Shown: positions 1 to 58,892, counted from the stretch's first letter. The stretch: DNA of 64,000 nucleotides from Candidatus Nanoarchaeia archaeon (GCA_041659245.1 JBAZYQ010000001.1:4912-68911), one strand, 5' to 3'. A program made the numbers and translations. Notes: generated by a model not told the origin, from the letters alone.

Positions 1-434
1 TCATTGCAAAATGGATTGGTGGAGAATTTTACAGGAAACTAGTATTTATTTGGGGTTATGGCAAGAATGCAAAAAAGCATAATAGGGAATTAAAATGGCT
101 ATACAAGGCATTTGGGGAAAGGCTATGGATAACTACTTTTTCAGAAGCATGCGAATATTTTGATTTAAGGAAAAAAAGCAAAATAGACATTAAACAGCAA
201 AAAGATAAGATTATCATAACTATAGATAGCAGGGATAGCTTATCTTGGGATGGCAGGGCAATGCCTGTTTCATTAAAACTAAAAGGCATTGCAAGTGTCA
301 AAAATTGCAGCTTACTGAAAGGCACCAAAAAAATTAGGATAAATTCGTTTAGGGCGCTCTCTAACGGCGATATTATAATTGATGATGTAATACTAAAACC
401 TAATGCTATTACTAGATATGAATTTGGGTTCTAA
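1..434 (+). CDS. 5'-truncated CDS (C-terminal ~143 aa) of a hypothetical protein
   Basis: Frame 3 is open from the window edge to TAA at 432-434 (…WDGRAMPVSLKLKGIASVK…YEFGF*). No recognisable motif. Confidence 0.35.
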   Translation, partial: IAKWIGGEFYRKLVFIWGYGKNAKKHNRELKWLYKAFGERLWITTFSEACEYFDLRKKSKIDIKQQKDKIIITIDSRDSLSWDGRAMPVSLKLKGIASVKNCSLLKGTKKIRINSFRALSNGDIIIDDVILKPNAITRYEFGF

Positions 435-503
435 ATGAATATGTCCCTGAATTAAATCTATAACTCCTAAAAATTTATAAAGGATATCTTTCTCGTTATC
501 TTT

Positions 504-1448
504 ATGAAAAACATATTGGTTACAGGCGGAGCCGGCTTTATAGGCAGTCATCTCTGCGAGACGCTTGTGAATAAGGGGCACAATGTTGTTTGCATGGACA
601 ATTTAAGCACGGGCAATAAGAATAATATTTCCCATTTGCATGAAAACTTTAAGTTTGTAAAAGGCGATGCAAATTCAATCGAGGATTTAAAGCCTTTATT
701 TGCTGAAAATAGGTTTAATTCTGTTTTTCATTATGCTGCTCTTGTTGGTGTTGAAAGAACTCTGAAACATCCGCTTGCTGTTCTTAATGATGTTAACGGC
801 ATACAGCATATTCTCAGATTAGCAAAGGAGAATGGCACAAAAGAAGTAATCTATTCATCTTCATCTGAAGTTTACGGGGAGCCCGTTGAAATCCCTGAGA
901 TTGAAGATGGGCATCTGAATGCAAAGCTGCCTTATGCTGTAACAAAGTTAATGGGCGAAAAGCTTATGAGGGCTTATTATGAAGAATTTGGCTTAAAAAC
1001 AGTCTCGTTAAGATTCTTTAATGTATATGGTCCAAAACAGGATTCAAGTCCATATGGATTTGTTGTCGGCATTTTTATAAAACAATTGCTTGAAGGCAAA
1101 AACCCTACCATATTTGGTGATGGCACGCAAACAAGAGATTTTGTTTATATACAAGATAACATCAATGCCGCCTTAAAAGCCATGGATAGCCCCAAATGCG
1201 CAGGGGAATCCATAAATATAGGAAGCGGAAAATCAATAACAATCCTTGAATTGGCAAATACATTGGCAAATATGATTAACAGTAAAATTAAACCTAAATT
1301 TATTGGTACTAACAGGATAGATATCAAGCACAGGCGTCCTAATGTCTCAAAGATGCAATCTCTTTTGGGATTTTATCCGGAATATAAGCTTGAACAAGGG
1401 CTTGCGAAGACAATAGAGTGGTATAAAGAGAAGGGTAATGCTAAATAA
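504..1448 (+). CDS. NAD-dependent epimerase/dehydratase (extended SDR), UDP-glucuronate decarboxylase / UDP-sugar 4-epimerase-like
   Basis: N-terminal TGGAGFIGSH Rossmann motif, DNLSTG, SSSSEVYG, YxxxK (YAVTK) catalytic motif, NVYGP; 314 aa. Confidence 0.8.
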   Translation: MKNILVTGGAGFIGSHLCETLVNKGHNVVCMDNLSTGNKNNISHLHENFKFVKGDANSIEDLKPLFAENRFNSVFHYAALVGVERTLKHPLAVLNDVNGIQHILRLAKENGTKEVIYSSSSEVYGEPVEIPEIEDGHLNAKLPYAVTKLMGEKLMRAYYEEFGLKTVSLRFFNVYGPKQDSSPYGFVVGIFIKQLLEGKNPTIFGDGTQTRDFVYIQDNINAALKAMDSPKCAGESINIGSGKSITILELANTLANMINSKIKPKFIGTNRIDIKHRRPNVSKMQSLLGFYPEYKLEQGLAKTIEWYKEKGNAK

Positions 1449-1573
1449 GTCTAATATTCTTTTTATTAAACATTCTGTTTCTTTTATTGATGGTTAGGAG
1501 AGAGCCCACCCTTATTGATAACATTTAAATACCTATCTTTTAATTCTTAAAACTTAAAGTGGTATCTAAAGAT

Positions 1574-2272
1574 ATGATTGTAAATGTTTGCAATGCGAAT
1601 AAAGAATTAAAGAATTTAGGGCTAGTTATTTTTACTTGGGGCAATGTCAGCGCAATAGATAGGGCCAGAGGAGAAGTAGCTATAAAGCCAAGCGGAGTTC
1701 CATACGATAAACTGCAACCGGAGGATATTGTTGTTGTAGATTTAGACGGTAGAATAATTTCTGGTTCTAAAAAACCCAGTTCAGACACACTAGCTCATTT
1801 GGAGTTGTATAGGCGATTTAAAGGGGTTGGTTCTATTGTACATACCCATTCCGTATATGCCTCTGCTTTTGCTCAGGCAAGAATGCCAATCGCTTGCATG
1901 GGGACAACTCATGCAGATTATTTTTCGGGTCCTGTTCCTGTAACCAGGCTTATGACGAAAGAAGAAGTAACAAAAGATTATGAATTAAATACAGGAAAGC
2001 TGATAGTGGAACATTTTCTGGAAAACAAGCTGGATCCTATGATTATGCCTGCCTGTTTGGTTGCTGGTCACGCACCATTTATATGGGGCAATAGCCCGGC
2101 AGAGGCGGTTCATAATGCAAAAGTATTAGAAACTGTCGCTCAAATGAATCTTTTAACATTGCAGTTAAATTCTAATATAACTGATTTGCCCTCTTTTTTA
2201 TTGGAAAAGCATTATATGCGTAAACATGGCCCTACTGCATATTATGGGCAAAAAAGAGCAAAAAATGACTAA
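1574..2272 (+). CDS. Class II aldolase/adducin-family protein (L-ribulose-5-phosphate 4-epimerase / L-fuculose-phosphate aldolase-like)
   Basis: TWGNVS and HTHSVYASAF motifs typical of the AraD/FucA fold. ATG at 1574; the track's 1559 start is GTG. Stop overlaps the next gene's start. Confidence 0.7.
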   Translation: MIVNVCNANKELKNLGLVIFTWGNVSAIDRARGEVAIKPSGVPYDKLQPEDIVVVDLDGRIISGSKKPSSDTLAHLELYRRFKGVGSIVHTHSVYASAFAQARMPIACMGTTHADYFSGPVPVTRLMTKEEVTKDYELNTGKLIVEHFLENKLDPMIMPACLVAGHAPFIWGNSPAEAVHNAKVLETVAQMNLLTLQLNSNITDLPSFLLEKHYMRKHGPTAYYGQKRAKND

Positions 2273-3101
2273 TCTTATCCCCATGGCTGGTATTGGAAGC
2301 CGTTTTTTAGAAAAAGGATTTACTTTACCTAAACCTTTAATTCCTGTTTTGGGGCTGCCAATGCTCATAAAGGTAATAAGGGATTTGCCCCCTTCTGACA
2401 AATGGATATTCTTAGTGAGAAAGGAGCATATTGATGAGTACCAGATTGATGCCGTAATAAATCATGAGTTACCTGATGCAATTATTATTCCTGTAGCAGA
2501 AACGACTGAAGGGCAAGCATGTACCTGTTTATTGGCGAAAGAGCATATCAACATGGCGGAGCCGCTTTTTATTGCTGCCTGTGACAGCGGTTTTTTATAT
2601 GATCATGAAAAATTTGAAGAATTTAAAAAAGACAAAAATATAGATGCAGTTTTTTTTACTTTTTCAAAACAGAACATTCTGAGAGTCAATCCTTCTGCAT
2701 GGGGCTGGTGTATATTAAATAATGATGGCAAGACAATTAAGAGTATGTCGATAAAAATTCCTATTTCTAAGGATCCTTACTATGATCATGCAATTACAGC
2801 CTCTTTCTTCTTTAAAAAGGCGCAGGACTTTTTTGATGCTGTTTCACTTATGATCAACGAGGATTATAGAATTAACAATGAATTTTACGTTGATTCGGTG
2901 CCAATATTCCTTAATAGAATGGGCAAAAAGACAGCCATATTCGATGTGGACCTTTTTGTAAGCTGGGGCACTCCTAATCAGTTATTTGATTTTCAGAAGG
3001 TATCTTATTTTGTTGCAAATAATCTCAGTCCAAAACTGTTGCCAGAAGAGTATAAGCCTCTTTTTAAATTATGGAAAAAATATATTAAAGGAGTATCATG
3101 A
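2265..3101 (+). CDS. Sugar-phosphate nucleotidyltransferase (NTP_transferase family)
   Basis: MAGIGSRF…LPKPL N-terminal signature of sugar-1-P nucleotidyltransferases. ATG at 2265 overlaps the upstream stop (ATGACTAA). Confidence 0.6.
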   Translation: MTNLIPMAGIGSRFLEKGFTLPKPLIPVLGLPMLIKVIRDLPPSDKWIFLVRKEHIDEYQIDAVINHELPDAIIIPVAETTEGQACTCLLAKEHINMAEPLFIAACDSGFLYDHEKFEEFKKDKNIDAVFFTFSKQNILRVNPSAWGWCILNNDGKTIKSMSIKIPISKDPYYDHAITASFFFKKAQDFFDAVSLMINEDYRINNEFYVDSVPIFLNRMGKKTAIFDVDLFVSWGTPNQLFDFQKVSYFVANNLSPKLLPEEYKPLFKLWKKYIKGVS

Positions 3102-3829
3102 CTGTTTTATTATCTATTGTTGTGCCTTGTTATAATGAAGGAAAAAATATTCCTTTTTTAGTTAAAAGATTCTTAGAAGCGAAAAAAGACAATACTTCTT
3201 CTCAATTGGTGATGGTCAATAATGGCTCAACAGATAATTCTCTTCGCTTAATGCGGCAGTTTGCCGCGAAATATAGCTCAATAAATATTGTTAATATAAA
3301 ATACAATAAAGGATATGGACACGGCATATGGTCTGGAATATCCAAGGCTTCAGGGAAATTTATAGCCTGGACACATGCTGACCTTCAAACAGATATCAAA
3401 GATGCGTTTGTTGCTTATGACCTAATAAAACATAAGATAGATAATAAAACCTGTTTTGTAAAAGGGAAAAGAAAAAAGAGGGCTTTTTTTGATTCTTTTT
3501 TCTCTTATGCAATGTCAATTTTTGAATCAATTGTATTTGGAAGGATAGTTTATGATATAAATGCCCAACCTAACTTATTTCATAGGGAATTTCTTAAACA
3601 AGTACATAATCCTCCACTTGATTTTTCTTTTGACTTGTTTATATATTTAACAGCCTTATATTCAAAACAGAAGATTATACGGTTTCCTGTGGACTTTCCT
3701 GAAAGAATCCATGGGCAATCCCATTGGAATACGGGCATAAGGGACAAGTATAAGTTTATTAAACGGACTATCTCTTTTACATGGGAATTAAAGAGGAGAA
3801 TGAGGAAAAATGATAATAGCCGCACATAG
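3098..3829 (+). CDS. GT2-family glycosyltransferase (polyprenol-phosphate sugar synthase-like)
   Basis: LSIVVPCYNEGKNI…VMVNNGSTDNS…HADLQTD: GT-A fold with DxD-type motifs. ATGA start/stop overlap with the upstream gene. Confidence 0.8.
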   Translation: MTVLLSIVVPCYNEGKNIPFLVKRFLEAKKDNTSSQLVMVNNGSTDNSLRLMRQFAAKYSSINIVNIKYNKGYGHGIWSGISKASGKFIAWTHADLQTDIKDAFVAYDLIKHKIDNKTCFVKGKRKKRAFFDSFFSYAMSIFESIVFGRIVYDINAQPNLFHREFLKQVHNPPLDFSFDLFIYLTALYSKQKIIRFPVDFPERIHGQSHWNTGIRDKYKFIKRTISFTWELKRRMRKNDNSRT

Positions 3830-4421
3830 GGTAAATACAGTGGACATGCTGAAAAAAGTTCCTGTTGAGTATGGTGTTGAAGTGGATGTAAGGGTTGCGG
3901 GTAAAGAACTAATATTGAATCATGAGCCTTATATTGGTGGAGAGCTCTTGAAAGAATTCTTGAGCAACTATCGTCATAGTTTTATCATATTTAATATCAA
4001 GGAGGCCGGCATTGAATCCGACGTTATTAAATTAGCGCAGGACTATAATATAGAAGATTACTTTCTCCTTGATGTAGAATACCCTTTTATTTATCGTGCA
4101 ACAAGAAAAGACATATTCAAAAAGATAGCAGTGAGATTTTCTGAAGCAGAGCCTATTGAATTTGCTTTGGCGCATAAGGGTATGGTCGATTGGGTGTGGG
4201 TGGATACTAATACTATCCTGTCTTTAAATGCAGATGTTTATGCAAGGCTCCATAAAGCTGGTTTTAAAATTGCTTTGGTTTCACCGGATAGGTGGGGCAG
4301 ACCTGAAGATATTTTAAAATATAAAGCTTATTTGACAAAAGAGAAAATTCCAGTTGATTTAGTCATGGTAGATTTGCAATTGGCTCCAAAATGGCTGGAT
4401 TGCAAAGTGCAAGATGATTAG
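3810..4421 (+). CDS. Glycerophosphodiester phosphodiesterase (GDPD)-like protein, divergent
   Basis: IAAHRVNT…VEVDVRV…LNHE resembles the GDPD HR…ExD…HD layout. Weak call. Confidence 0.35.
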   Translation: MIIAAHRVNTVDMLKKVPVEYGVEVDVRVAGKELILNHEPYIGGELLKEFLSNYRHSFIIFNIKEAGIESDVIKLAQDYNIEDYFLLDVEYPFIYRATRKDIFKKIAVRFSEAEPIEFALAHKGMVDWVWVDTNTILSLNADVYARLHKAGFKIALVSPDRWGRPEDILKYKAYLTKEKIPVDLVMVDLQLAPKWLDCKVQDD

Positions 4422-7338
4422 GGAAATACTAAGAGACAGGAAAAACGTTCTATTTAGGTTTGTTACAGTGGGTTCTTTATCCACTATTATCAATGTTCTG
4501 GTTTTTATAATACTAATCCAATTGTTGGATCTGCATTATATTCTGTCCGCTTCAATAAGCTATATATGCGGATTTTGTTTGGGATTTATATTAAATACAA
4601 AGTTTTTGGCTGAATTTCAAAGATTTGAAATAAGAAAATATCTTATCGTATACAGCATTTCTCTCCTCATTCAATTATTATTTATGTTTTCAATGGTAAT
4701 AATGGGTCTCGAGGTATTTATTGCCTTTTTAGTGTCTTTGTTTTTGGGTTCTTTAACAAATTTTCTCGGGATAAAATATTTTGTCTTTGCCAAAACCGCA
4801 TTCATCAAGAAAATAAATTATCTTGTATTCAGGTTCAGATATTTTATTATCTATGTTGTAATTGGCTTAACCTCCATATTGGTGGAGCTGCTTGTAATTG
4901 CCTCCATTGAGAATCTTTTTTCAACTCTATACCTAAAACTTTTCCTTGGATTTATGGTAGGTATGATTTTTAGCTTTGTCCTAAACTTAAAACTGAATTT
5001 TGACATTCCAAAAGAAAAGAGCCTTAGGACCTTCAGATTGTTTGTTTTTATCTCTTTTTGTGCATTTATAATTAATCTATTGCTGATAAAACAAGTATTC
5101 CCTTTATTTGGCTTTGCTAATTATAATTATATTCCTTTAAGATTTATTAGTGCAGGCCTTCTGTTTATGATAACTTATACTCTCCACAGGAGATTTACAT
5201 TTAGGGATGTCAAGCAGGTAGGTATTGCTATTTATTTATCTGATTCTGAGGATATTGGTCTTATATATTCGAAGGTATCAATATACCCTGATTTTTTGCA
5301 TATAGATCTTGTTGATAAGACTTTTAATAAAAATGCGGCAGAAATAGATGTAACAAAGGGTGCAGACATAAATCAGTATTGGCCTTATACAAAAAAGATG
5401 ACTCATATTATGTCAAGGACACCATCCCATTGGATTGATAAGGTGGCTTATTTTAGCGATTATATTATAATCCATTCGGAAATAGATGAAGATGTAGGAA
5501 AATTGATAGCACAAATAAAATCTAGGGGTAAGAAGGCTGGCATTTCTATTATGTACAAAACACCAATTGCGTCAATAATGCCTTTCTTAAAAGAAGTGGA
5601 CTTAGTTCAAATCCTTGCAATAGAAAAACCGGGTTTTTCAAATCAGCATCTGCAGAAAAAGGCGCTGACTAGGCTGCATCAATTGACATTATTAAGAGAT
5701 AAATATAATTTTGAAATCTGTTTTGATGGGGGTTTAAAGCCGACAAATATTCATAAGATTAATGCCAAGTATATTGTTTCCGGTTCTGCAGTATTAAACT
5801 CAAAAAATGTAATTGAAACTATCCACACCATGAAAACAAGCGGGCGTTATTATTTTAATAAGGATGAGGACCTGAAGGCATTTCTGGCGAAATCTATACT
5901 CGATACTCTTAATGCGATAGAATTTGTGAAATCAGGGACTATTGTCGGCTCGTTTGTGGATAAGCCAGGTATTGAAGGGTTAAGTGATGTCGATATAGTT
6001 GTTATTGTGGATAAATTGAACAAATCTAAGTTTGAGCATATTTTAACAAGATTTAAGGAGCTAAAACCAGTAATTGAATTAAATTTTGACAAAAAAGTTT
6101 TAATCAATACATGCTTTGGTCCGCTTAAATTCAATGTTGGAGACAATATTGTTCTCCATTTAATGGTATATGATATTGAAGGACACAAGCTGCATTGCCT
6201 AATGAGCCCTTTTACATGCTATGATTGGCAAAGGTCTGATACTTTTGTAAAAAAGCACATGAGCGAATTGTACGCAATTTGCGGGCTTAGCGTATCTGAC
6301 TTCTTTAATTCCAGGAGAAGCATAAATGATTACATTAAGGATATTGAGGCCAGGCGGATTTCTTATAGGAAATATACTTTTGATGATAATGGGGCTTTAA
6401 GCGAGAAAATTAAATATAAAACTATGAATAATAAGGATATTTTTGAATTTAGTTACCATGTTATGAACTTCCTGATGCGAAATTTTTCGAAGCTTTATTT
6501 CCAAATAAATAAAAATTGGTCTTTTGAGGAAATAATCACTAATTACAGCTTATTATTTAACGAGACGTCGAGTCTCAAATTTTTTAAAAAATTGAAAAAA
6601 TATAAATCTACCAATAGTTTTCCAAAATGGAATAAAAAGCATGAGGCCCAGTTACAGGCATTTTTGCTGCATTTTAAGAAAGGATTTGAATCGATATTCT
6701 TTTTGCATGCAAAACATCTGTTTTTTATCAGGCATCAGCAGTCTTTGTTAAATAAACAAGGATATTTTATCGGACAAAAACTCAATCCCTCTATAACCTC
6801 TATTAATAATTCGCTTTTAATCCCCTTTTCAGATATGAGCATAGAGAAAATTATCTCTTCGCCTGCTGAAAGATGTATTCAAACAGCAGACGCCATTAAA
6901 AAATATACACATCTGCAATTTTCTATTGATGTAGATAAGAATTTACAGGAGATAGATTATGGGTCTGTAGAAGGGGAGGATATTAATTTTCTAAAGAAAC
7001 ATTATCCGGACATTGTAAATGCATGGGCCAATAAGGAAGACCCCTGCTTTCCTGGAGGAGAAAATTATGTTGCTCTTTGCAGAAGGCTAGATGCTTTCAT
7101 TAAAAATTTAAACACAATTCCTCAAAAGAGAATATTGGTATGTACGCATAATGTTTTTTTACGCTGTTTAATTGGCACTATTTGGCAGATACCAGCCCAC
7201 AAATGGCATTTAATAGAAATACCTTTTCTAGAGCCCATTCAAGTTTCCCTTGGTAAAAATGGAAAATGCTTTCTTGATCTCTCAGATGGACAAAAGGAAA
7301 GATATTTAAAGAAGCTTTTTTTATATAATAAGGAGTAA
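4414..7338 (+). CDS. Multidomain fusion: tandem GtrA-like 4-TM domains + ribulose-phosphate 3-epimerase-like TIM barrel + Pol-beta-type nucleotidyltransferase + histidine phosphatase (PGAM-like) domain
   Basis: N-terminal RFxxVG GtrA-like segments, twice. RPE-like blocks: FLHIDLVDKTF, IIIHSEI, ILAIEKPGFSNQ, ICFDGGL, IVSGSAV. NTase: GSFVDKPGIEGLSDVDIVVIV. C-terminal histidine-phosphatase-like FFIRHQQS…SSPAERCIQTA…VCTHNVFLRCL. Confidence 0.7.
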   Translation: MIREILRDRKNVLFRFVTVGSLSTIINVLVFIILIQLLDLHYILSASISYICGFCLGFILNTKFLAEFQRFEIRKYLIVYSISLLIQLLFMFSMVIMGLEVFIAFLVSLFLGSLTNFLGIKYFVFAKTAFIKKINYLVFRFRYFIIYVVIGLTSILVELLVIASIENLFSTLYLKLFLGFMVGMIFSFVLNLKLNFDIPKEKSLRTFRLFVFISFCAFIINLLLIKQVFPLFGFANYNYIPLRFISAGLLFMITYTLHRRFTFRDVKQVGIAIYLSDSEDIGLIYSKVSIYPDFLHIDLVDKTFNKNAAEIDVTKGADINQYWPYTKKMTHIMSRTPSHWIDKVAYFSDYIIIHSEIDEDVGKLIAQIKSRGKKAGISIMYKTPIASIMPFLKEVDLVQILAIEKPGFSNQHLQKKALTRLHQLTLLRDKYNFEICFDGGLKPTNIHKINAKYIVSGSAVLNSKNVIETIHTMKTSGRYYFNKDEDLKAFLAKSILDTLNAIEFVKSGTIVGSFVDKPGIEGLSDVDIVVIVDKLNKSKFEHILTRFKELKPVIELNFDKKVLINTCFGPLKFNVGDNIVLHLMVYDIEGHKLHCLMSPFTCYDWQRSDTFVKKHMSELYAICGLSVSDFFNSRRSINDYIKDIEARRISYRKYTFDDNGALSEKIKYKTMNNKDIFEFSYHVMNFLMRNFSKLYFQINKNWSFEEIITNYSLLFNETSSLKFFKKLKKYKSTNSFPKWNKKHEAQLQAFLLHFKKGFESIFFLHAKHLFFIRHQQSLLNKQGYFIGQKLNPSITSINNSLLIPFSDMSIEKIISSPAERCIQTADAIKKYTHLQFSIDVDKNLQEIDYGSVEGEDINFLKKHYPDIVNAWANKEDPCFPGGENYVALCRRLDAFIKNLNTIPQKRILVCTHNVFLRCLIGTIWQIPAHKWHLIEIPFLEPIQVSLGKNGKCFLDLSDGQKERYLKKLFLYNKE

Positions 7339-7344
7339 ATTCAA

Positions 7345-8793
7345 ATGGTAAAAATATTATTCTTGCAGCAGATATGGTTTCCTTTTCAGGGAGTCATGAC
7401 TTTATCGGCGGCATTAAAGCGGGCAGGACACGAAACTGCAGTTGCAGTCGGAAAAGACGAGAGACTTTTTAAAGAGATTTACGAATTTAAACCAGATATA
7501 ATTGCGTTTCCGGTTATTACCTCTTATAGAAGATTTATGATAGAAACTGTTAAAAAAATAAAGGCTAAGAATATTAAGGCTTTAATTGCAATTGGGGGAT
7601 ATGATGCCTCTTTTTTCCCGCAAATAATAGAGAAACTACCGATTAATGTTTTATGTATTGGAGAAGGAGACGATGCTTTTGTGGAATTTGCGAATGCAGT
7701 GAAAGAGGGGAAGGACTATTCCCATATTAAAAATTTATGGGTTAAGCATAACGGAAAAATTATTAAGAATCCGATAAGGTCTTTTAAAGACCTGAAGAAT
7801 AAGCCCTTCGACGACAGAGATATTTATAGGGATTATGACTCTTATTTTAAAGATATTGAATTTGAGCAAGTGATGGTTGGCAGGGGTTGCCCTTATTGCT
7901 GCTCTTATTGTTTTAATCATAAGTATAGGGAACTTTATGCACCTGTTGATAAGCAATATTGTGCTTTGAGGGATGTTGATAATGTCATAGAAGAATGCTT
8001 AATACTTAAAAATAAATATAAGGTTAAGAATTTATTCTTTAATGATAGTACTCTTGGTTATGATAAAAAATGGATATTAAAATTTCTTAAGGAATATCGG
8101 GAAAGGGTAAATATGCCTTTTTCTATTAATGCTTGTGCAAATGAGCTTACCGAAGATGTATGTAAGGCATTAGCTGATACAAAACAGTGCTATATTATAC
8201 GCTTGGGGCTTGAAACAGGAAATGAAGACCTCAGATTTAATGTTTTAAACAAGAAGATGACAAATAAACAATATATGGACGCAACTAACCTTTTGAAAAA
8301 ATATAAGCTTAAATATTCTATGGCTGTCATGTTTGGGCTTCCGGGAGAAACATTGGCAAATTCTTTTGAAACTCTGGATTTAGCTATTAAACTATCAGAT
8401 AAGAATACTGTTGTTGCTGTGAATATCTTTAAGCCATTTCCCAAACTGAATATAACCGAATATGGGGTTAAGCATGGGTTTTATAAATCTGAACTAATAA
8501 ATGATTCAAACTTGATAGGTGATAATGTTATGAATTTTTTTGAATGTTTTAGGCAAGATGAAGAAGGCAGGGTAATTTTGAATTTATCCAGATTATCCCA
8601 GATATATTTGCATTTCCCTATTCTAAGAAAACTAATCCGGACAAAATTAATATATCGGTCGGATAATGCGATTTATAGGGCAATATGGAAATTTAGCGAT
8701 TATTATTACACAAGCAGGCATCATATTAATGCGTCGCTGCCTTTCTTATTTAAGTATGTATTTAAGCATATGGGTAAAGGGGTAAGGGGATAA
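7345..8793 (+). CDS. Cobalamin-binding (class B) radical SAM enzyme, subfamily 1
   Basis: N-terminal B12-binding-like Rossmann segment (MVKILFLQ…IAFPVITS…IAIGG), then radical SAM cysteine motif RGCPYCCSYC (CxxxCxxC). Paralog of 34555..36090. Confidence 0.85.
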   Translation: MVKILFLQQIWFPFQGVMTLSAALKRAGHETAVAVGKDERLFKEIYEFKPDIIAFPVITSYRRFMIETVKKIKAKNIKALIAIGGYDASFFPQIIEKLPINVLCIGEGDDAFVEFANAVKEGKDYSHIKNLWVKHNGKIIKNPIRSFKDLKNKPFDDRDIYRDYDSYFKDIEFEQVMVGRGCPYCCSYCFNHKYRELYAPVDKQYCALRDVDNVIEECLILKNKYKVKNLFFNDSTLGYDKKWILKFLKEYRERVNMPFSINACANELTEDVCKALADTKQCYIIRLGLETGNEDLRFNVLNKKMTNKQYMDATNLLKKYKLKYSMAVMFGLPGETLANSFETLDLAIKLSDKNTVVAVNIFKPFPKLNITEYGVKHGFYKSELINDSNLIGDNVMNFFECFRQDEEGRVILNLSRLSQIYLHFPILRKLIRTKLIYRSDNAIYRAIWKFSDYYYTSRHHINASLPFLFKYVFKHMGKGVRG

Positions 8794-8824
8794 TCTTAAA
8801 TATAGTAATTGGCTTAATTAGGCT

Positions 8825-9445
8825 ATGGAATATGTTTTTGCCCTTAAACCGGAACCTTGTCTATATAATAAAATAAGAATATTGAAAACTTCTTTAAAAA
8901 AGCAAATGGGAAATCAGTTGTATATCAATGACGAACCGCATGTTACTCTCTGCGTATTGGATTTAGGCGATGATATATCTTTTAAAGATAAGCTCGACTT
9001 TATAATCGGTTCTTTTCGTTCTAAATTTAAAAAAATAAGATTTTCGATAAATGCATGGTCTATTTTTTCTGAGGATCCAGTTACTTCTTGTTCAACTTTA
9101 GTTTGTCGGCTCAATATGCCCGGCAATGTCCTGAATAATCTTCAATCTAAATTATTAAAGGAATTACAACTTTTTCGTACAAAAGACATTGCTTTGCGTT
9201 ATATAAAAGTTAAATTCAAAAATAAAGAATTCAATAACTGCTTGCAGCAATATGGGTATCCATTTATGGGCATGATATGGATACCGCATATAAGTATTGG
9301 CTCATTTGATAAAAAAGCCATTAATAAGGCAATTGAAAAAACAGAAAATAAGTGTCCTATTGGCCTCTATTCTTTTCAATCATTGATTGTTTATAAGCTG
9401 CTTCCATCTGATAAATTAGTTCCGCTATATAAATACCCTTTTTAG
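8825..9445 (+). CDS. 2H phosphoesterase superfamily protein (LigT / cyclic phosphodiesterase-like)
   Basis: Two H-x-T/S-x motifs in hydrophobic context: EPHVTLCVL and IPHISIGSF, about 105 aa apart, in a 206-aa protein. Confidence 0.5.
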   Translation: MEYVFALKPEPCLYNKIRILKTSLKKQMGNQLYINDEPHVTLCVLDLGDDISFKDKLDFIIGSFRSKFKKIRFSINAWSIFSEDPVTSCSTLVCRLNMPGNVLNNLQSKLLKELQLFRTKDIALRYIKVKFKNKEFNNCLQQYGYPFMGMIWIPHISIGSFDKKAINKAIEKTENKCPIGLYSFQSLIVYKLLPSDKLVPLYKYPF

Positions 9446-9448
9446 ATA

Positions 9449-11314
9449 TTAGCCTGTTAGATTATATACAATATACTCTCTATTTTTTGTGATTAGTGGA
9501 AATTCCAACTCTTTGTCTTTATTGAATATTGCATATGAAAAGTGGAACTTTTCTTTTAAGATTTGCAATTGCGTTTCATTGAGTGTAGTATAATACTCGT
9601 TAAGATGTTGATTTTCCCCATAGGTTCTGTCATCCAAGGTGAAATGGTTATTTGTTACATTTATAATACGGATATACCACTCTACCATATACCTGTCATC
9701 TAAAGGTATTGTTTTAAAATCAACAACAATAGCCCTATTGAGGCATAATCTCCATTGCTCTTCATCAGGCGGTGTTAAAAATATAGAATTTATAGGTGTA
9801 TTCTCTTGTGCAAAAAGGCAGATTTCTTTCATTTCCGGTTCAAAATCTGATCTTGCATTTAAAGGTGATATCTTAAGGTCAACAAACGAGATTATTACCA
9901 ATATTGCTATTAAAAGGAAAATAATCTTTTTGTTTTTAGGATATATAATCAAAGCTGAACATAAAAGGTAGATAAAAAAGATTATAAATGCTGGCACCAA
10001 TAGGCTTTTAATCAGGGATATTTTTTCTTGTGAAGTTAAATATCTTAGCAGGGTTGGAAATGTAAAATATAGCAATCCTCCCAAGATAATGGCAATGGCA
10101 ATGCCTGCAAAAAGAAAATATCCTCTGTTTATTTTAATATAATTGTTCTCTTTTAGTTTTATAAAAATAAATATTAATGCCAAGAGAATAAATAAATACC
10201 TTAAGACAAATGTGGCAAAAGAGAATATGAATAATAAAGCAAATAGTTTTAGGGGAATACTTTTGGCACTTGCCCATAGCTCATAAGCTTCATTAAAAAT
10301 TATAATATATGAGACCATGAACATGAAGGCAACAGCCCGGAACATATGAAATAAAGCAAAGGACGAGATTGGAATTATTTCTACAAATATATACCCAGTG
10401 ATAGCATATAAAATGCATATTATATAAGATACATAAAATACAGATTTTTGCTTGAAGTTATTATCTCTTAAAAATAACAATCCCAATACTACCAGAAGTA
10501 TGGTTGCAACAAAAAGACTAAAATCCCAAGAGCTTGGCAGGCAATGCCATGGATGCCTGAATCTGGCAACTATGTGGGTAATCAGGCTCTGGTCTGTAAA
10601 CCTTGAAGAAATTAGCAGGCCTTGGATAAGAGCAGGTGCACCTATTATTATAAAAGATATAGGTTTTATCAAGTAAATAAGATTTGATTTGGTAAAAATA
10701 GGTTTGCGTATGTTAATGAAAATATGTATAAAGTAGTATATTGAGAAACACATAAGTCCTGTAATTGTATGGAATATTGCTGCCAATCCTAATATGGCAA
10801 ATCCGCTTACAGTCTTATTCCGCAGTATAAGGTTTAAGGAAATAAGTGCAAAACACCATGAGATAATATTTGGGGTAAGGATGCTGTCAATAAGATTAAT
10901 GGAACCTAAAAATGATGTTTGATACGCCATGATAAAAAACAAGCTAAATAAGGCTGATTTTGCCTTATTTTTATAAAAATAATCTGCAAGATAGAATAAG
11001 GATAGGGCAATCCCCTGTGTAAACAATAAGGTTAATAAAAAGAAAGTAACTGACAGGCTGCCTATTATTTTATATGTGCAAAGGACAAAATAGTTAAATA
11101 TGGATCTAATATTAAATCCTTCCATTGAATTGGTATACCAGTCATTAACAAGGTAGCTTGTATCATTAATGCGGTACATATTTGGTAAATATTGATTATG
11201 GTTACCGATGCCATAACCGCTATATATGAAGATAAATAGAACTGTGACGCAGATAAAGCAAAATATCTCAAATCTGTATTTTTGCAGTATATTCTTAATA
11301 TAATCAGACTTCAT
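9449..11314 (-). CDS. Polytopic integral membrane protein (~14 TM) with C-terminal soluble domain; possible GT-C-like glycosyltransferase
   Basis: 621 aa. Hydrophobic helices throughout the first ~480 aa, then a hydrophilic C-terminal domain. No specific motif recognised. Confidence 0.5.
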   Translation of the reverse strand: MKSDYIKNILQKYRFEIFCFICVTVLFIFIYSGYGIGNHNQYLPNMYRINDTSYLVNDWYTNSMEGFNIRSIFNYFVLCTYKIIGSLSVTFFLLTLLFTQGIALSLFYLADYFYKNKAKSALFSLFFIMAYQTSFLGSINLIDSILTPNIISWCFALISLNLILRNKTVSGFAILGLAAIFHTITGLMCFSIYYFIHIFINIRKPIFTKSNLIYLIKPISFIIIGAPALIQGLLISSRFTDQSLITHIVARFRHPWHCLPSSWDFSLFVATILLVVLGLLFLRDNNFKQKSVFYVSYIICILYAITGYIFVEIIPISSFALFHMFRAVAFMFMVSYIIIFNEAYELWASAKSIPLKLFALLFIFSFATFVLRYLFILLALIFIFIKLKENNYIKINRGYFLFAGIAIAIILGGLLYFTFPTLLRYLTSQEKISLIKSLLVPAFIIFFIYLLCSALIIYPKNKKIIFLLIAILVIISFVDLKISPLNARSDFEPEMKEICLFAQENTPINSIFLTPPDEEQWRLCLNRAIVVDFKTIPLDDRYMVEWYIRIINVTNNHFTLDDRTYGENQHLNEYYTTLNETQLQILKEKFHFSYAIFNKDKELEFPLITKNREYIVYNLTG

Positions 11315-11436
11315 TTTTTATATTTACAGCGGATAAGTTTATAAATTTACCTAAGAATAGATTATTTTATATAGTTGATTATTATGTTTAACCAAATTAT
11401 TTTTCTAGCATTATCCTTATTTTGGAATATATAACA

Positions 11437-12876
11437 TCAACTGGACTTTTTCATGCTGCTAATCAATGCCATTGCCCCATTTATGTAAACCTTTACCCTG
11501 TCTTTTGAGCCAAGATATTTGAGCTGCCTCAATATAAATTTTGGGCGTAAATAGAAGCTTCTCATTGCATATTTCTGGAGCTCTTTGAGCTCTTCAGCAT
11601 TTCTGCCTTCAGGCATGTAAACAAGCTCCTTGTTTGACCATCCGGCCCATGTTTGATAATTTTCCCATTGGAATGACTTTAGTGTTTTGTCTTTCTTTGT
11701 GATTTCATATAATTTTGTTCCAGGATATGGCACTGTTATAGTGAATTGCACCCAGTCAGGGTCAATTTCCTTTGAAAAACTGATTGTCTGCATGCTTTCT
11801 TCCTTTGTTTCAGAAGGCAAACCGAGCATAAAGAATGCTTTTATCTCGATTCCTGCTTCCCTTGTCCATTTGAATGCATCCCTCACCTGCTGCAGCGTTA
11901 TTCCCTTATCTATCAAATTCAGCAACCTCTGGTTTCCGCTTTCAACGCCGTAATGCATGCTCCAGCAGCCTGCTTTTTTCATTATTTTCAGCAGTTCTCT
12001 GTCAACAAGATTTACTCTTGTCATGCAGCTCCATTCAAATCTCTTGTTTAATCCCAGCCGCATAATCTCATTGCATAATTCAATAACGTGCCCTCTGTCT
12101 ACTGTAAAAGTATCGTCCCTAAATATTATGTCTTTTGCGCCGTAATCATTCAGAAGAGTGTTTATTTCCTCAATTATTCTTTTCACAGAATGCTTTCTGT
12201 AAACTCTTCCGGAAACTTTTGAGCAGTATGCGCATTTGAAAGGGCATCCTCTTGAGGCAAGTATAAGATAGCTTGGAAGCCTTTTGAAGTATGTTGGCGC
12301 CGGAGTATATTTAGCCATTGGCAAAAGATCCCTTGCGGGCAATGGAATGGAATCAATGTCTGTTTTTATCTCACGCGCAGGATTTATCGTTATTTTGCCG
12401 TTATTTCTGTATGCTATGCCTTTTATGCTTTCAAAATGCTTTTTTTCTGAAATTGCGTTAAGCAATTCCACTATTGTGTCTTCAGCTTCCCCGAAGCAGG
12501 CAAAGTCGATGTTCTTGTTTTCTTCGAGGGTTATTTCAGGAAAAACAGTGACGTGAGGACCGCCGGCAATAATCTTTGCTTTTGGAAGTGTCTCTTTTAC
12601 AAGGCTGATTATTTCCTTTGCGCGAAGATACATTGGTGTAAGTATAGACACGCCCACAATATCAGGATTTGATTCAATAATACGTTTTTTTAATTCTTCA
12701 GTGCTGATGCGCACAGCGGCAATGTCCAATATTTCAACGTCAGCCGCTTTTGCTTCTCTTATTACCGCAGCAAGATAAGCCAATCCCATTGGCTCGCACA
12801 TAGGCCCCACCTTGCCAAGATATTTACCGTATCTTTCATCAAGCGTAAGCCCTGGCTGAATAAGCATAATTTTCAT
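11437..12876 (-). CDS. Cobalamin-binding (class B) radical SAM enzyme, subfamily 2
   Basis: MKIMLIQPG…MGLAYLAAV…IVGVS B12-binding-like N-terminus; SRGCPFKCAYCS CxxxCxxC. Start moved to the internal ATG at 12876 (the track extends to 12933). Confidence 0.85.
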   Translation of the reverse strand: MKIMLIQPGLTLDERYGKYLGKVGPMCEPMGLAYLAAVIREAKAADVEILDIAAVRISTEELKKRIIESNPDIVGVSILTPMYLRAKEIISLVKETLPKAKIIAGGPHVTVFPEITLEENKNIDFACFGEAEDTIVELLNAISEKKHFESIKGIAYRNNGKITINPAREIKTDIDSIPLPARDLLPMAKYTPAPTYFKRLPSYLILASRGCPFKCAYCSKVSGRVYRKHSVKRIIEEINTLLNDYGAKDIIFRDDTFTVDRGHVIELCNEIMRLGLNKRFEWSCMTRVNLVDRELLKIMKKAGCWSMHYGVESGNQRLLNLIDKGITLQQVRDAFKWTREAGIEIKAFFMLGLPSETKEESMQTISFSKEIDPDWVQFTITVPYPGTKLYEITKKDKTLKSFQWENYQTWAGWSNKELVYMPEGRNAEELKELQKYAMRSFYLRPKFILRQLKYLGSKDRVKVYINGAMALISSMKKSS

Positions 12877-12995
12877 TAGGAACTGAAAGTGTGTTTCATA
12901 TTTAAATAGTTTCGGGATAATAGTGGCAAACATTTAGTAATATATAATTTAAAATCAAATAGCCTTAGAGGATCAAAACATAATAACTCTTTTAT

Positions 12996-13871
12996 TTATT
13001 TTTTCATATCCGCTAAAAATCCAAAGAATAATATTTGGAGACCAGAAATTATTAATAATATGCATAAGACTGTACTTGGCAGATGCCCTACTTTGCCTGT
13101 TTTAAAGAATAGCATGGTAAGCCAAAGTCCAAGTAATAATCCTGTGATAATAAAACTGCCTCCAATGCTCCCAAAGAATTTAATGGGGTTATAATCCCTT
13201 TGCACTCTAAGGATATTTATCCATGCTTTAAATGCGTATCCGAATGGATTCTTTATTAATTTGCTTTTTCCTTCCCTGGCAGAAAAATAGGTTGGGATCT
13301 CTTTCACCTTGAAATCTTCCGTTACTGCCCTTAGTATTTGTTCTTGGGTATAAGTATGGTTTGATATAATATCTAAAGATGCAACTTTCCTGTTAAATGC
13401 TCTAAAACCAGTCTGGCAATCGTTAATTTTATATTTTAATATCTTGGATATGGCTCGGGAGAAAGCGCGATTTCCAATCTTTTTTAATAAAGGCATCTTT
13501 TCTATGCCTCCGGCAAACCTGTCTCCTAATACCAAATCATAGCCCTTCTCAACTTCGTGTATTAATCTTGGAATGTCTTTTGCCTGGTATTGCCCGTCTG
13601 CATCTGTATGCACAATAATATCTGCGCCCATCTTCAGGCTTTTTTTAATTTCAGTTCGAAATGCCTCAGCCAGTCCCCTATTAGTAAAATGCGAAAAAAC
13701 AAACGCTCCTGCTTGTTTAGCAAGACTTTCTGTTTGATCTGTGCTTCCGTCATTTACAACAAGAAGTTTATAATTATATCTCTCCTTAGCCATTACATCC
13801 TTTATGTCTTTAATCACATGACCTATTGTTTTTGCTTCATTGTATGCCGGGATGGTAATTACAACTTTCAT
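12996..13871 (-). CDS. GT2 polyprenol-phosphate sugar synthase (Dpm1/ArnC/GtrB-like) with C-terminal TM anchor
   Basis: VVITIPAYNEAKTIGHVI…LVVNDGSTDQT…HTDADGQ, then a C-terminal hydrophobic segment. Confidence 0.85.
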   Translation of the reverse strand: MKVVITIPAYNEAKTIGHVIKDIKDVMAKERYNYKLLVVNDGSTDQTESLAKQAGAFVFSHFTNRGLAEAFRTEIKKSLKMGADIIVHTDADGQYQAKDIPRLIHEVEKGYDLVLGDRFAGGIEKMPLLKKIGNRAFSRAISKILKYKINDCQTGFRAFNRKVASLDIISNHTYTQEQILRAVTEDFKVKEIPTYFSAREGKSKLIKNPFGYAFKAWINILRVQRDYNPIKFFGSIGGSFIITGLLLGLWLTMLFFKTGKVGHLPSTVLCILLIISGLQILFFGFLADMKK

Positions 13872-15105: not shown

Positions 15106-15600
15106 TTACTGCTTTGTAAATTGTAAAAACTGAAAAAGGAATAAAGGATAATATAGGCTTTCGCTCATTATAAAAGGGGCAAATGCTAGATTTGAAGGCA
15201 ATACTGATACAACAACAGCCGTAAGAAATGCTGATTTATCCTCAAGAAATTCTTTTGCAAGAAGCCATGCGGGAATTATTATTAGTGAAGATAATAGTGC
15301 ATTAAGAAATTTCATAAAAATGTAAACATATTGCATATCCTTAAATTTATATGAAATTGAGATTAGAATGGGGTAAAGCGGAGGAAATTGCGCAGAAGGC
15401 ACACCATGTTCTGTAAATTCCTGGTCAAAATAGAAGCTCCTTGCTATTTTTGCATATGAATCTTCATCGCTATATCCTGATATTGTGGGCACAAATGAGG
15501 AAAACACAACTTTTACAATAACCAATGCTAGAAAAATCAACAAAAGCCGTTTTGTATACATTTTCATTAGACTTAAATCAGTTATACTTTTTATAAACAT
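15106..15600 (-). CDS. GT-C (PMT/ArnT-like) glycosyltransferase, N-terminal portion
   Basis: TM1, then YSDEDSYAKIARSF: the DE/DxD first-loop motif of the PMT/ArnT/AglB GT-C families. Confidence 0.55.
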   Translation of the reverse strand: MFIKSITDLSLMKMYTKRLLLIFLALVIVKVVFSSFVPTISGYSDEDSYAKIARSFYFDQEFTEHGVPSAQFPPLYPILISISYKFKDMQYVYIFMKFLNALLSSLIIIPAWLLAKEFLEDKSAFLTAVVVSVLPSNLAFAPFIMSESLYYPLFLFQFLQFTKQ

Positions 15601-22435: not shown

Positions 22436-22487
22436 TGATTTAGGACAATATAGATATATTTTTAAATGCTTAGTCTTATTTAATTCT

Positions 22488-53960: not shown

Positions 53961-54059
53961 TAATAAGTAAAATTTTATACCTCTATTTTTTGGTAGCTAT
54001 ATTAGTTTAAGTTTAGTTTCGATTTATTTTCTACGACAGAAACGCGACATTTAATGAAT

Positions 54060-55535
<1,476 letters not shown>

Positions 55536-55604
55536 TTATTTATTTATGTACAATATTTAATATACAATTTGCTAAAGTCTTGCCCACAAAAATGCTTTGG
55601 CTTT

Positions 55605-55676
55605 GGGCTCGTAGCGCAGTGGTAGCGCACTGCCCTTGCAAGGCAGGGGTCTCGGGTTCGAATCCCGACGAGTCCA
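55605..55676 (+). tRNA. tRNA-Ala (anticodon TGC) in the 16S-23S spacer
   Basis: GGGCTCGTAGCGCAGTGGTAGCGCACTGCCCTTGCAAGGCAG…GGGTTCGAATCCCGACGAGTCCA. Cloverleaf with 7-bp acceptor stem and G3:U70. CCA not encoded. Confidence 0.9.
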
Positions 55677-55900
55677 TTATGTATTTCCATTTTGGATTTC
55701 ATACCCGGCTGCAGGAGAATAAAATTTAGCTAAAGCAGATCACATATCATATTCAAACATATCATTGTTTGATCCGAAACCGAAAGGTTTCATTTGTGCG
55801 GTTCGCGTCGCGAGAAGCGGACTAAGGGCATTATGTCCATGAAGCAATAGTTTCATGGTACAGTATCATCGCAAACCAAAAGTTTGCACAGATGTTCATG

Positions 55901-55930
55901 GTGCCGTGCATAGGCAAGACAGTCTAGATC
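55901..55930 (+). other. 5' strand of the 23S pre-rRNA processing stem (pairs with 58844..58873)
   Basis: GTGCCGTGCATAGGCAAGACAGTCTAGATC pairs with AATCTAGGCTGTCTTGCTTATCACGGCA, about 25/28 complementary. Confidence 0.6.
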
Positions 55931-55939
55931 CTACTTATG

Positions 55940-58850: not shown

Positions 58851-58892
58851 AGGCTGTCTTGCTTATCACGGCATTCCTTTTTTCAAAAATCT

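Follow-up and report, generated by a model that had tools for sequence, protein, structure and literature searches.

A conserved gene cassette that may build a five-carbon sugar donor for lipid-linked surface glycosylation in DPANN archaea and bacteria

Introduction

The closest described counterparts of the locus treated here are the GtrA/GtrB/GtrC system of O-antigen glucosylation in Shigella and Salmonella and the archaeal AglD/AglR/AglS system of the dolichol-phosphate-mannose step. A dedicated pentose donor is found in the Arn pathway (ArnA/B/C/D/T), whose product is undecaprenyl-phosphate-L-Ara4N, while three-component pentofuranose systems that depend on phosphoribosyl pyrophosphate (PRPP; Citrobacter ORF15/14/12, GT136) and the mycobacterial synthesis of decaprenyl-phosphoryl ribose and arabinose (DPR/DPA) were treated by Kelly et al. 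in 2024 (PMC11127046). The present analysis concerns a gene cassette of a Candidatus Nanoarchaeia archaeon (GCA_041659245.1), located in a stretch of 64,000 nucleotides (JBAZYQ010000001.1:4912-68911), which is termed as a whole the window and from whose first letter its positions are counted. A preliminary description, made from the sequence alone, had singled out positions 1574-4421, where the genes of an AraD-type epimerase, a sugar-phosphate nucleotidyltransferase (NT), a family 2 glycosyltransferase (GT2), and a barrel protein termed PDE203 run into a gene fusion that contains an RPE (ribulose-phosphate 3-epimerase) domain.

With the Gtr and Agl systems the cassette shares a cytoplasmic GT2 predicted to load a lipid, a GtrA-type module, an adjacent gene for a protein with multiple transmembrane (multi-TM) segments, and a position in a surface-glycan or AglB island. 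Those systems use ready-made UDP-Glc or GDP-Man, whereas the cassette would bring its own donor-synthesis module of five to seven enzymes. At a rough probability of 55%, we propose that the open reading frames (ORFs) of 1574-4421, together with the fusion, a 2H phosphoesterase, and the multi-TM protein, constitute one pathway, in which ribulose 5-phosphate would be converted into a five-carbon sugar donor, loaded onto a lipid carrier, and delivered to a surface glycan.

Organization and conservation of the cassette

On the plus strand of the window, ORFs 1574-2272 (AraD), 2265-3101 (NT), 3098-3829 (GT2), and 3810-4421 (PDE203) follow one another consecutively and lead into a 974-aa fusion ORF at 4414-7338, exactly as had been described. 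The AraD and NT genes overlap by 8 nt, from the NT start at 2265 to the AraD stop at 2272 (ATGACTAA), NT and GT2 by 4 nt (3098-3101), GT2 and PDE203 by 20 nt, and PDE203 and the fusion by 8 nt (4414-4421, ATGATTAG). These lengths agree with the range of 4-20 bp given originally, while of the three overlaps that had been called ATGA-type (2265/2272, 3098/3101, and 4414/4421) only that at 3098/3101 is a true ATGA. In compact genomes such overlaps are by themselves commonplace; what argues for a linkage beyond chance is that the gene set is conserved in different domains of life.

A lookup of PDE203 homologues revealed that the set of fusion, 2H enzyme, AraD, NT, GT2, PDE203, and multi-TM protein recurs in Halobaculum sp. 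P14 and in metagenome-assembled genomes (MAGs) of DPANN archaea. A scan covering one genome per species yielded 124 loci encoding PDE203 relatives, which are distributed over DPANN archaea, CPR/Patescibacteria, Bacteroidota, Verrucomicrobiota, Armatimonadota, Lentisphaerota, Spirochaetota, and Proteobacteria; no PDE203 homologue was found in the phage collection searched. The comparison of 85 loci by tblastn and all-against-all ORF clustering disclosed a near-universal core triad composed of NT (71 loci), GT2 (76), and PDE203 (80), in which GT2 usually directly precedes PDE203.

Two variants are built around this triad. Variant 1 comprises 24 loci including the window, all of which carry the GtrA-RPE module, the module that joins the middle domain of the fusion (MID) to a histidine phosphatase (MID-HisPhos), and the 2H enzyme, the last of these as detected by an iterated 2H family hidden Markov model (HMM). 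AraD is present in 18 of the 24, and three of the six loci devoid of it end at contig ends. The carriers are DPANN archaea, Halobaculum, Bacteroidota, Verrucomicrobiota, and Marinimicrobia. The linkage noted in the preliminary description, which joins a nucleotidyltransferase and an RPE domain to an AraD-type epimerase, is genuine and conserved in variant 1; its delimitation of a four-ORF module upstream of the fusion was too narrow, since the fusion, the 2H enzyme, and the multi-TM protein belong to one conserved unit with these ORFs.

Variant 2 is characterized by a membrane-anchored phosphoribulokinase (PRK; NF005655, 180 bits), a phosphatase of the haloacid dehalogenase family (HAD) whose best model is the haloarchaeal ribulose-bisphosphate (RuBP) 5-phosphatase (137 bits), and NT', a second paralogue of NT, which keeps the catalytic motif together with a conserved pocket of its own. 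A class II aldolase-fold protein of 320-340 aa, AldII-L, is usually present as well. A minimal variant 2 without the second NT was considered and dismissed, as such loci carry a fused NT'-NT. This variant is found in CPR bacteria, an Escherichia coli plasmid, Azospirillum, Hirschia, and a giant-virus MAG. The E. coli copy (L090; NZ_CP145712.1, 6022-14984) lies on a 33-kb IncR plasmid, and among 5,426 complete E. coli genomes searched the cassette occurs in only two, both times on a plasmid of ~33 kb, and no link to xylulose-containing serogroups is thereby established. On plasmid p5 of Azospirillum brasilense MTCC4039 (L091) it adjoins gmd and an ABC transporter, while in pHbal01 of Hirschia baltica ATCC 49814 (L092) a gene of the UXS family is situated inside it. 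A literature search on Azospirillum glycans with pentofuranose or xylulose gave nothing relevant. A contig classed as viral (L093; IMGVR_UViG_3300015262_000245, 1-8526) likewise contains variant 2, sharing ~72% DNA identity over 6 kb with the copy on the E. coli plasmid, and may represent a phage- or plasmid-borne serotype-conversion module.

The giant-virus contig (L094; IMG/VR GVMAG-M-3300009151-61, 8001-13575; 28% GC) encodes PRK, a HAD-AldII-L fusion, an NT'-NT fusion, and PDE203, and its neighbors are gmd, a C-methyltransferase-SDR fusion (SDR, short-chain dehydrogenase/reductase), and soluble Leloir glycosyltransferases (GT2, GT25, GT7, and WavE). The cassette GT2 homologue, GtrA, and a GT-C glycosyltransferase are all absent from this contig, where the sole ORF of the GT2 family encodes an unrelated 185-aa protein. 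Because the soluble set occurs there without GtrA and GT-C, the soluble enzymes appear to form a self-contained nucleotide-sugar pathway, in which PDE203 would act before glycosyl transfer. An action of PDE203 on the lipid-linked product was rejected on the same ground, namely that L094 retains PDE203 with the soluble enzymes and without the lipid-linked machinery.

The gene fusions encountered are 2H-PDE, NT'-NT-PDE, PDE-NT'-NT, GT2-PDE, PDE joined to an IMPase-like phosphatase, GT61-PDE, MID-HisPhos-2H, and HAD-AldII-L, by which the steps of the proposed pathway are tied together. The 2H-PDE203 fusion (P0267/L088) resides within an otherwise normal variant-1 cassette, and MID-HisPhos is fused to 2H in L045, L048, and L060, forming a single polypeptide in Chitinophagaceae.

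The enzymes of the cassette

Judged from its sequence, the product of 1574-2272 is a bona fide AraD-type L-ribulose-5-phosphate 4-epimerase, which matches PF00596 (4.9e-48) and scores 335 bits against NF006047, above the cutoff of 257 bits; against the TIGR00760 equivalog it reaches 310.5, under the cutoff of 389. E. coli AraD (1JDI) can be aligned to it end-to-end (231 bits, residues 9-231) with identity at N28, K42, S44, G45, S74, S75, D76, H95, H97, T116, D120, H171, and Y229, which we take to be ligand or catalytic positions (Zn ligands D76, H95, H97, and H171; acid/base D120 and Y229, in E. coli numbering). Since the protein cannot be told by sequence from a canonical AraD, and since small genomes commonly show short overlaps, it might be supposed that an ordinary catabolic or central enzyme stands beside glycosylation genes by chance, the overlaps reflecting nothing but compact-genome packing. 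We regard this supposition as hardly credible, and the synteny data already contradict it: AraD lies in or beside the cassette not only in the 18 variant-1 loci but also in two short contigs besides these, a spread that reaches from Archaea to Bacteroidota, Verrucomicrobiota, and Marinimicrobia. Furthermore, the Pfam and NCBIfam scans of window positions 504-38691 gave no arabinose isomerase or ribulokinase family, and in variant 2 the place of AraD is taken by another enzyme of the class II aldolase fold. The refuting case that the preliminary description had named against itself, a generic FucA-type aldolase without conserved linkage to the operon, is likewise contradicted, as the protein is AraD-type and syntenic in both Archaea and Bacteria.

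The product of 2265-3101 (plus strand) is, at the superfamily level only, a sugar-phosphate nucleotidyltransferase of GT-A-like fold, as indicated by its N-terminal MAGxGSRF...PKPL motif and by the family profile. Its sequence matches WC852_00045 of a Candidatus Nanoarchaeia MAG without a difference, and the databases contain 891 relatives at 50-63% identity, which without exception are unnamed or bear generic names. The residues G9, G11, R13, and K23 of the GxGxR...K signature are invariant in 25 homologues, many homologues bear precomputed PF00483/PF12804 matches, and the family profile retrieves sugar-1-phosphate nucleotidyltransferases from the PDB (6e-7; 4EVW, HddC, and IPCT), among which the nearest solved relatives are 4EVW, an uncharacterised Vibrio enzyme, and HddC.

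The soluble GT2 (3098-3829, plus strand; PF00535, 1.4e-17) is of the polyprenyl-phosphate glycosyltransferase type and resembles the catalytic part of dolichol-phosphate mannose synthase (DPMS), GtrB, and ArnC. Its best PDB matches, over residues 4-232, are ArnC (9HWJ, 1.5e-10), GtrB (5EKP, sll0501, 7.7e-9), and the DPMS of Pyrococcus furiosus (5MLZ, 8.7e-9). A scan of the 243-aa protein for hydrophobic or transmembrane (TM) segments found none, and the GtrA_DPMS_TM domain is encoded by the next gene here, and other loci devote a small gene of its own to it. Residues 1-265 of the fusion (4414-5208, plus strand) contain two such GtrA/DPMS-type TM modules (two stretches of PF04138, ~7 hydrophobic segments), which on this basis are a candidate membrane partner or flippase for GT2. 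Downstream on the minus strand (9449-11314) is the gene of the 621-aa multi-TM protein, with ~12-14 hydrophobic segments and a C-terminal DUF6798 (PF20604), a candidate GT-C transferase for which the lipid-linked sugar would be the extracellular substrate. The same cassette position elsewhere is occupied by a DUF6798 protein (L002) or by a GT-C of the PMT_2 family (L005, L003, L019, and L016).

The resemblance of GT2 to ArnC, a pentose-type transferase, raises the question of whether a conventional UDP-pentose (UDP-Xyl or UDP-L-Ara derived from UDP-GlcA) is its substrate, in which case the pentulose enzymes, NT, and PDE203 would make a phosphodiester-linked substituent or another donor. A UXS/GalE-like SDR is encoded directly upstream (504-1448) and a UDP-glucose dehydrogenase at 16931-18139, and the UXS-family gene in the Hirschia cassette would fit such a scheme. 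The SDRs are, however, not conserved with the cassette, most neighboring SDRs being of the gmd/rmd type appropriate to a rhamnan backbone. Moreover, the GT2-PDE and NT-PDE fusions and a near-universal adjacency bind GT2 to the product of NT and PDE203, and the giant-virus contig possesses the soluble module without a cassette GT2 homologue. The UDP-pentose explanation is consequently considered improbable.

Following the TM modules, residues 266-480 of the fusion (5209-5853, plus strand) form the RPE domain (PF00834, 1.9e-24), in which H35, D37, H70, and D175 are conserved upon alignment to human RPE and are presumably its metal and catalytic residues. Residues 481-765 constitute MID (5854-6708, plus strand; 285 aa), which by motif and fold would be a nucleotidyltransferase (NTase) domain of the Pol-beta fold resembling aminoglycoside O-adenylyltransferases. 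The GS...DxD motif is invariant, along with H102, D107, H111, H114, C122, R154, and R155, in an alignment from which two loci were left out on account of in-frame stops. The AlphaFold2 model, built from database homologues, has a pLDDT of 89 and finds its best Foldseek matches in ANT(9)/AadA (E 3e-3 to 1e-2), while the MID profile gave no match against PDB sequences. MID is always joined to a histidine-phosphatase domain, and MID-HisPhos also exists as a free two-domain protein in bacteria. In the fusion, that domain (branch 1) covers residues 766-974 (6709-7338, plus strand; PF00300, 5e-26), with the alpha-ribazole phosphatase CobC and FBPase-2 as the nearest models. In two Woesearchaeota MAGs the MID-homologous region (L012, 3620-4486; L040, 7195-8040) contains one in-frame stop each, which could mean that the gene is split or a pseudogene, or else reflect recoding or an error of assembly.

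The fold class of MID, which we take to be that of LicD and fukutin as well, and the affiliation of NT to the superfamily of TarI, IspD, and AbpA-type enzymes, which handle non-anomeric phosphates, would also be in keeping with a teichoic-acid-like modification, in which a pentulose 5-phosphate, once cytidylylated, would undergo reduction to CDP-ribitol or CDP-arabinitol, with subsequent transfer of the pentitol phosphate to a glycan. Such a route would demand a reductase, yet none is conserved in the ~85 loci, and the search for a TarJ-like enzyme that had been advised disclosed no conserved dehydrogenase cluster among the neighbors. The downstream enzyme is furthermore a GT2 of the DPMS/GtrB type and not a TagF/TarL/LicD transferase, and the fold search with MID returned aminoglycoside adenylyltransferases, not LicD or FKRP. 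Pentitol phosphate transfer is for these reasons very improbable. Of the original suggestion that a pentulose/pentose or pentitol phosphate becomes a nucleotide- or lipid-linked donor, the pentulose and the nucleotide- and lipid-linked frame are upheld, the latter by a GT2 of the polyprenyl/dolichyl-phosphate type, and the pentitol finds no support.

The 2H (LigT/CPDase-like) phosphoesterase (8825-9445, plus strand) carries the two HxT/S motifs HVTL and HISI and matches PF13563 at 1.1e-5, below the gathering score. Both motifs are shared with the 2H cyclic phosphodiesterases (CPDase). CPDase opens ADP-ribose 1'',2''-cyclic phosphate and leaves an anomeric phosphate. TM segments were not detected in the soluble enzymes of the cassette. 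A divergent family of 210-255 aa was also observed in or beside the cassette, mostly in variant 2, and six of its eight members exhibit two HxT/S motifs in a 2H-like manner (L006, 8690-9427; L009, 378-1103; L031, 10782-11420; L041, 10692-11330; L046, 12579-13289; L058, 1834-2538; L059, 5781-6479; L085, 7849-8613).

PDE203 (3810-4421, plus strand) is predicted from its structural model to be a TIM barrel resembling glycerophosphodiester phosphodiesterases (GDPD) and phosphatidylinositol-specific phospholipase C (PI-PLC), and its family, which comprises 1,577 clusters among 1.84 billion representative proteins, is contained in neither Pfam nor NCBIfam. The AlphaFold2 model (pLDDT 95.7) is an eight-stranded barrel, for which the top ten Foldseek matches in the PDB are all GDPDs (probability 1.0, E 3.5e-6 to 6e-5, TM-score 0.64-0.75). 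The invariant residues H6, R7, N9, E24, D26, R28, H38, K64, and E65 lie at strand ends; H6/R7 follow beta1, E24/D26 belong to beta2, and H38 comes behind the strand thereafter, places like those of the GDPD HR/ExD/H motif, a correspondence of motif position and not a residue-level superposition. Bacterial homologues are labeled 'PI-PLC/GDPD family' by PGAP. At the sequence level, the window protein matched nothing in Pfam or NCBIfam, neither phmmer nor a profile search retrieved a PDB sequence, and PF03009 was found in none of 36 members even at E <= 10. Some DPANN homologues have an additional N-terminal PF14251 domain (PterinBD-DUF4346; P0004, P0010, P0012, P0018, P0032, and P0095; L003, 10001-10936).

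The enzyme assignments of the preliminary description accordingly stand, though at different levels. Its AraD-like class II aldolase/epimerase is secured by the NF006047 score and the full-length 1JDI alignment, its GT2 by PF00535, and its RPE domain by PF00834 and the alignment to human RPE. The sugar-phosphate nucleotidyltransferase is sustained by the motif and the profile search against the PDB as a superfamily assignment and not at any finer level, in view of the low PF12804 score given below, and the GDPD-like phosphodiesterase is borne out by fold, without a counterpart in the HMM and PDB sequence searches.

Proposed pathway

From homology, the RPE domain would convert D-ribulose 5-phosphate into D-xylulose 5-phosphate, which AraD would epimerize to L-ribulose 5-phosphate; NT would make an NDP-sugar, and the soluble GT2, for which the GtrA-type TM modules would be the docking site, would transfer the sugar onto dolichyl or polyprenyl phosphate. 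For the middle of the pathway, the preferred route begins with the nucleotidylation of O1 of the pentulose phosphate by MID, upon which the fused histidine phosphatase would strip the 5-phosphate and let the furanose close. Subsequently, PDE203 would cyclize the diester to a 1,2-cyclic phosphate, the 2H enzyme would open the ring to give the anomeric 2-phosphate, and NT would form an NDP-ketopentofuranose, presumably NDP-L-ribulofuranose in the window archaeon. In variant 2, PRK may phosphorylate O1 of ribulose 5-phosphate and NT' may nucleotidylate that phosphate in place of MID, with HAD substituting for HisPhos (an IMPase-like domain in one fusion) and AldII-L for the optional AraD. Two nucleotidylation steps fit this variant because NT' retains the catalytic motif. 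Pentulose-phosphate enzymes occur in both variants, and after loss of the 5-phosphate and furanose closure both would arrive at a pentulose with an O1-phosphodiester or anhydride beside the anomeric C2-hydroxyl. An O1-diester next to a C2-hydroxyl is the arrangement attacked by GDPD/PLC-type enzymes. Synteny suggests that the multi-TM protein would finally transfer the sugar outside the cell and that an accessory methylase, a B12-binding radical SAM enzyme in DPANN and a TylF-type enzyme in bacteria, may act on the sugar.

These parts differ in firmness. The passage through a nucleotidylated pentulose and a 1,2-cyclic phosphate is the middle route that we prefer, tentatively and with considerable doubt. 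Slightly more doubtful still is the complete proposition that a ketopentose (L-ribulofuranose here, xylulofuranose or ribulofuranose elsewhere) is activated at its anomeric carbon by an undescribed sequence of O1 nucleotidylation, 5-phosphate removal, GDPD-like cyclization, 2H opening, and a second NT.

Several results weigh against the scheme. To our knowledge, NDP-linked ketopentofuranoses have never been described. The weak point of the preferred route is the 2H enzyme, on which the ring-opening step depends: a 2H-like gene is found in only 7-8 variant-2 loci, so that most loci of this variant offer no enzyme to which that step can be assigned. The modeled PDE203 is GDPD-like by fold and motif position only: its hhalign comparison with UgpQ, for which an approximate query sequence was employed, was not significant, and the barrels of RPE and phosphoribosylanthranilate isomerase (PRAI) are its next-best fold matches. 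The fold match of MID is weak (TM-score ~0.5, E ~3e-3), the window NT scores 20.5 bits against PF12804, below the gathering score of 27, and no GT-C Pfam match was obtained in the DUF6798 proteins.

The similarity of PDE203 to the RPE and PRAI barrels would also suit a different chemistry, in which the donor would be an NDP-aldopentofuranose. Therein, the pentulose would be phosphorylated at O1 by PRK in variant 2, or by MID and 2H as a kinase surrogate in variant 1, PDE203 would serve as a ketose-1-phosphate/aldose-1-phosphate isomerase, running the reaction of MtnA or ribose-1,5-bisphosphate isomerase in reverse, a phosphatase would remove the 5-phosphate, and NT would provide, for instance, NDP-L-Araf or NDP-Xylf to GT2. 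The attraction of this scheme is that all constant enzymes of variant 2, namely PRK, the HAD similar to RuBP 5-phosphatase, PDE203, NT, and GT2, receive a role with no step missing, that NT'-NT could form a two-subunit pyrophosphorylase, and that lipid-linked three-component systems are known to deliver pentofuranoses (PMC11127046). It would nevertheless oblige a GDPD-type site with an intact H/R/E/D/H set to perform other chemistry and an adenylyltransferase plus a 2H enzyme to replace a simple kinase, and it is at odds with the full catalytic motif and separate pocket of NT'. The 2H-PDE fusion and the recurring 2H-like genes are likewise more natural for cyclic-phosphate chemistry. Altogether, the aldopentofuranose donor, the main alternative, seems to us unlikely, if still deserving of attention, and the ketopentofuranose route remains the one preferred.

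Genomic setting and gene starts

The first 39 kb of the window form a glycosylation island, harboring AglB, a Wzx-type flippase, UDP-glucose dehydrogenase, a DegT aminotransferase, several glycosyltransferases, many methyltransferases, and five genes of B12-binding radical SAM enzymes, and this gene content places the cassette in an N-glycosylation island. AglB/STT3, the oligosaccharyltransferase, is encoded at 30957-33668 (minus strand), the Wzx/MATE-type flippase at 20924-22435 (plus strand), and a second multi-TM protein, which is PMT-like, at 36877-38691 (plus strand), while a 164-aa ORF at 15106-15600 (minus strand) resembles the N-terminus of STT3 only. In bacteria, the cassette is accompanied by gmd and ABC transporters, as in surface-glycan loci. 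The SDR at 504-1448 (plus strand) scores equally against UDP-glucuronate decarboxylases and UDP-glucose 4-epimerases; it could supply UDP-xylose with the UDP-glucose dehydrogenase (minus strand), and neither gene is conserved with the cassette.

The five radical SAM genes are located within 36 kb at 7345-8793, 11437-12933, 19440-20867, 22404-24011, and 34555-36090. The first of them (plus strand; PF02310, PF04055), a lineage-specific accessory that separates the fusion from the 2H gene, probably encodes a methylase according to its domains. Its homologues adjoin the cassette in the DPANN loci L003, L005, L006, and L010 at 54-66% identity, which exceeds the identity of the cassette enzymes themselves. 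Farther downstream, at 54058-58853, there is a complete archaeal 16S-tRNA-23S operon of ~50% GC in a region of ~34% GC, with the spacer tRNA at 55605-55676.

An archaeal TATA-box-like element, TTTAAATA (1524-1531, plus strand), was read from the sequence 28 nt before GTG 1559, which may be an alternative start of AraD; the element is a possible promoter and suggests a transcription unit starting at araD. The GT2 start is preceded by GGAG and the PDE203 ATG at 3810 by GAGG at a distance of 5 nt. Public gene calls deviate for NT (285 aa at NCBI, against a family median of ~276) and PDE203 (191 aa at JGI), and homologue alignments favor the starts 2265 and 3810, respectively. The 191-aa call would remove strand beta1 and the invariant H6-R7.

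Significance

Xylulofuranose has been reported in the glycans of E. coli O95/O97, Yersinia, Campylobacter, Devosia, and chloroviruses, for which the donor pathway has not been assigned (PMC7685785, PMC8707391, PMC9614988). The cassette is a candidate xylulofuranose donor pathway, no link to those organisms being established; should the proposal be correct, it would supply the donor pathway missing for these glycans. One horizontally mobile cassette would then put an unusual five-carbon sugar on the surfaces of DPANN archaea, CPR bacteria, freshwater Bacteroidota, Azospirillum, the host of an E. coli plasmid, and a giant virus. It would also introduce into nucleotide-sugar synthesis enzyme types that are new to it, that is, a GDPD-like barrel, a 2H phosphoesterase, an aminoglycoside-adenylyltransferase-like domain, and a phosphoribulokinase. 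Meanwhile, the PDE203 family, which lacks a Pfam entry and spans ~1,600 representative clusters, acquires a functional context. Attachment of the DPANN and CPR episymbionts to their hosts could plausibly be determined by surface glycans, and the presence of variant 2 in cultured bacteria makes genetics and glycan chemistry feasible.

Comparison with known systems

In addition to its own donor module, the cassette departs from the Gtr and Agl systems in that GT2 is split from its TM domain, the latter being fused to RPE, NTase, and phosphatase domains, and in that the putative transferase is a DUF6798 protein instead of a recognized GtrC or AglS. The Arn pathway would have in common with it a dedicated pentose donor, transfer by a GT2 (its ArnC being the top PDB match), and use by a GT-C outside the membrane, for which the cassette has a candidate, whereas the Arn donor is obtained from UDP-GlcA by decarboxylation and that of the cassette would arise from pentulose phosphates via epimerases, nucleotidyltransferases, and phosphoesterases, with no homologues of ArnA, ArnB, and ArnD. 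The PRPP-dependent systems would share with it a lipid-phosphate-pentose donor, a sugar 5-phosphate phosphatase, auxiliary pentose epimerases, a flippase, and a GT-C; they employ PRPP and a UbiA-type phosphoribosyltransferase and epimerize after lipid attachment (PMC11127046), while the cassette, which has no PRPP enzyme, would rely on an NDP-sugar and GT2 and epimerize at the pentulose-phosphate stage.

The pathways to CDP-ribitol (TarI/TarJ) and CDP-arabinitol (AbpA/AbpB) also start from a pentulose 5-phosphate and a nucleotidyltransferase of the GT-A fold, but the cassette is devoid of a reductase and has a downstream glycosyltransferase instead of a polyol-phosphate transferase. As regards the GDPD/PI-PLC enzymes, PDE203 has in its model the fold of GDPD, and its H-R, E-x-D, and H residues lie at strand ends that seem to correspond; it differs in being shorter (~200 aa), in being missed by GDPD HMMs, and in its setting within sugar-nucleotide synthesis. 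The haloarchaeal non-carboxylating pentose bisphosphate pathway (NF053830/NF053831; RuBP 5-phosphatase and ribulose-1-phosphate aldolase) has the same enzyme types in series as variant 2, namely PRK, HAD, and a class II aldolase fold. The variant-2 proteins score far under the equivalog cutoffs, however, and their genes are fused or adjacent to those of nucleotidyltransferases and glycosyltransferases, which argues for an anabolic and not a catabolic setting. Literature searches on the fusion architecture, DUF6798, AraD with GtrA, and PRK with Patescibacteria found no description of the cassette, which is best described as a widespread, apparently undescribed sugar-donor cassette on a known type of lipid-linked glycosylation system.

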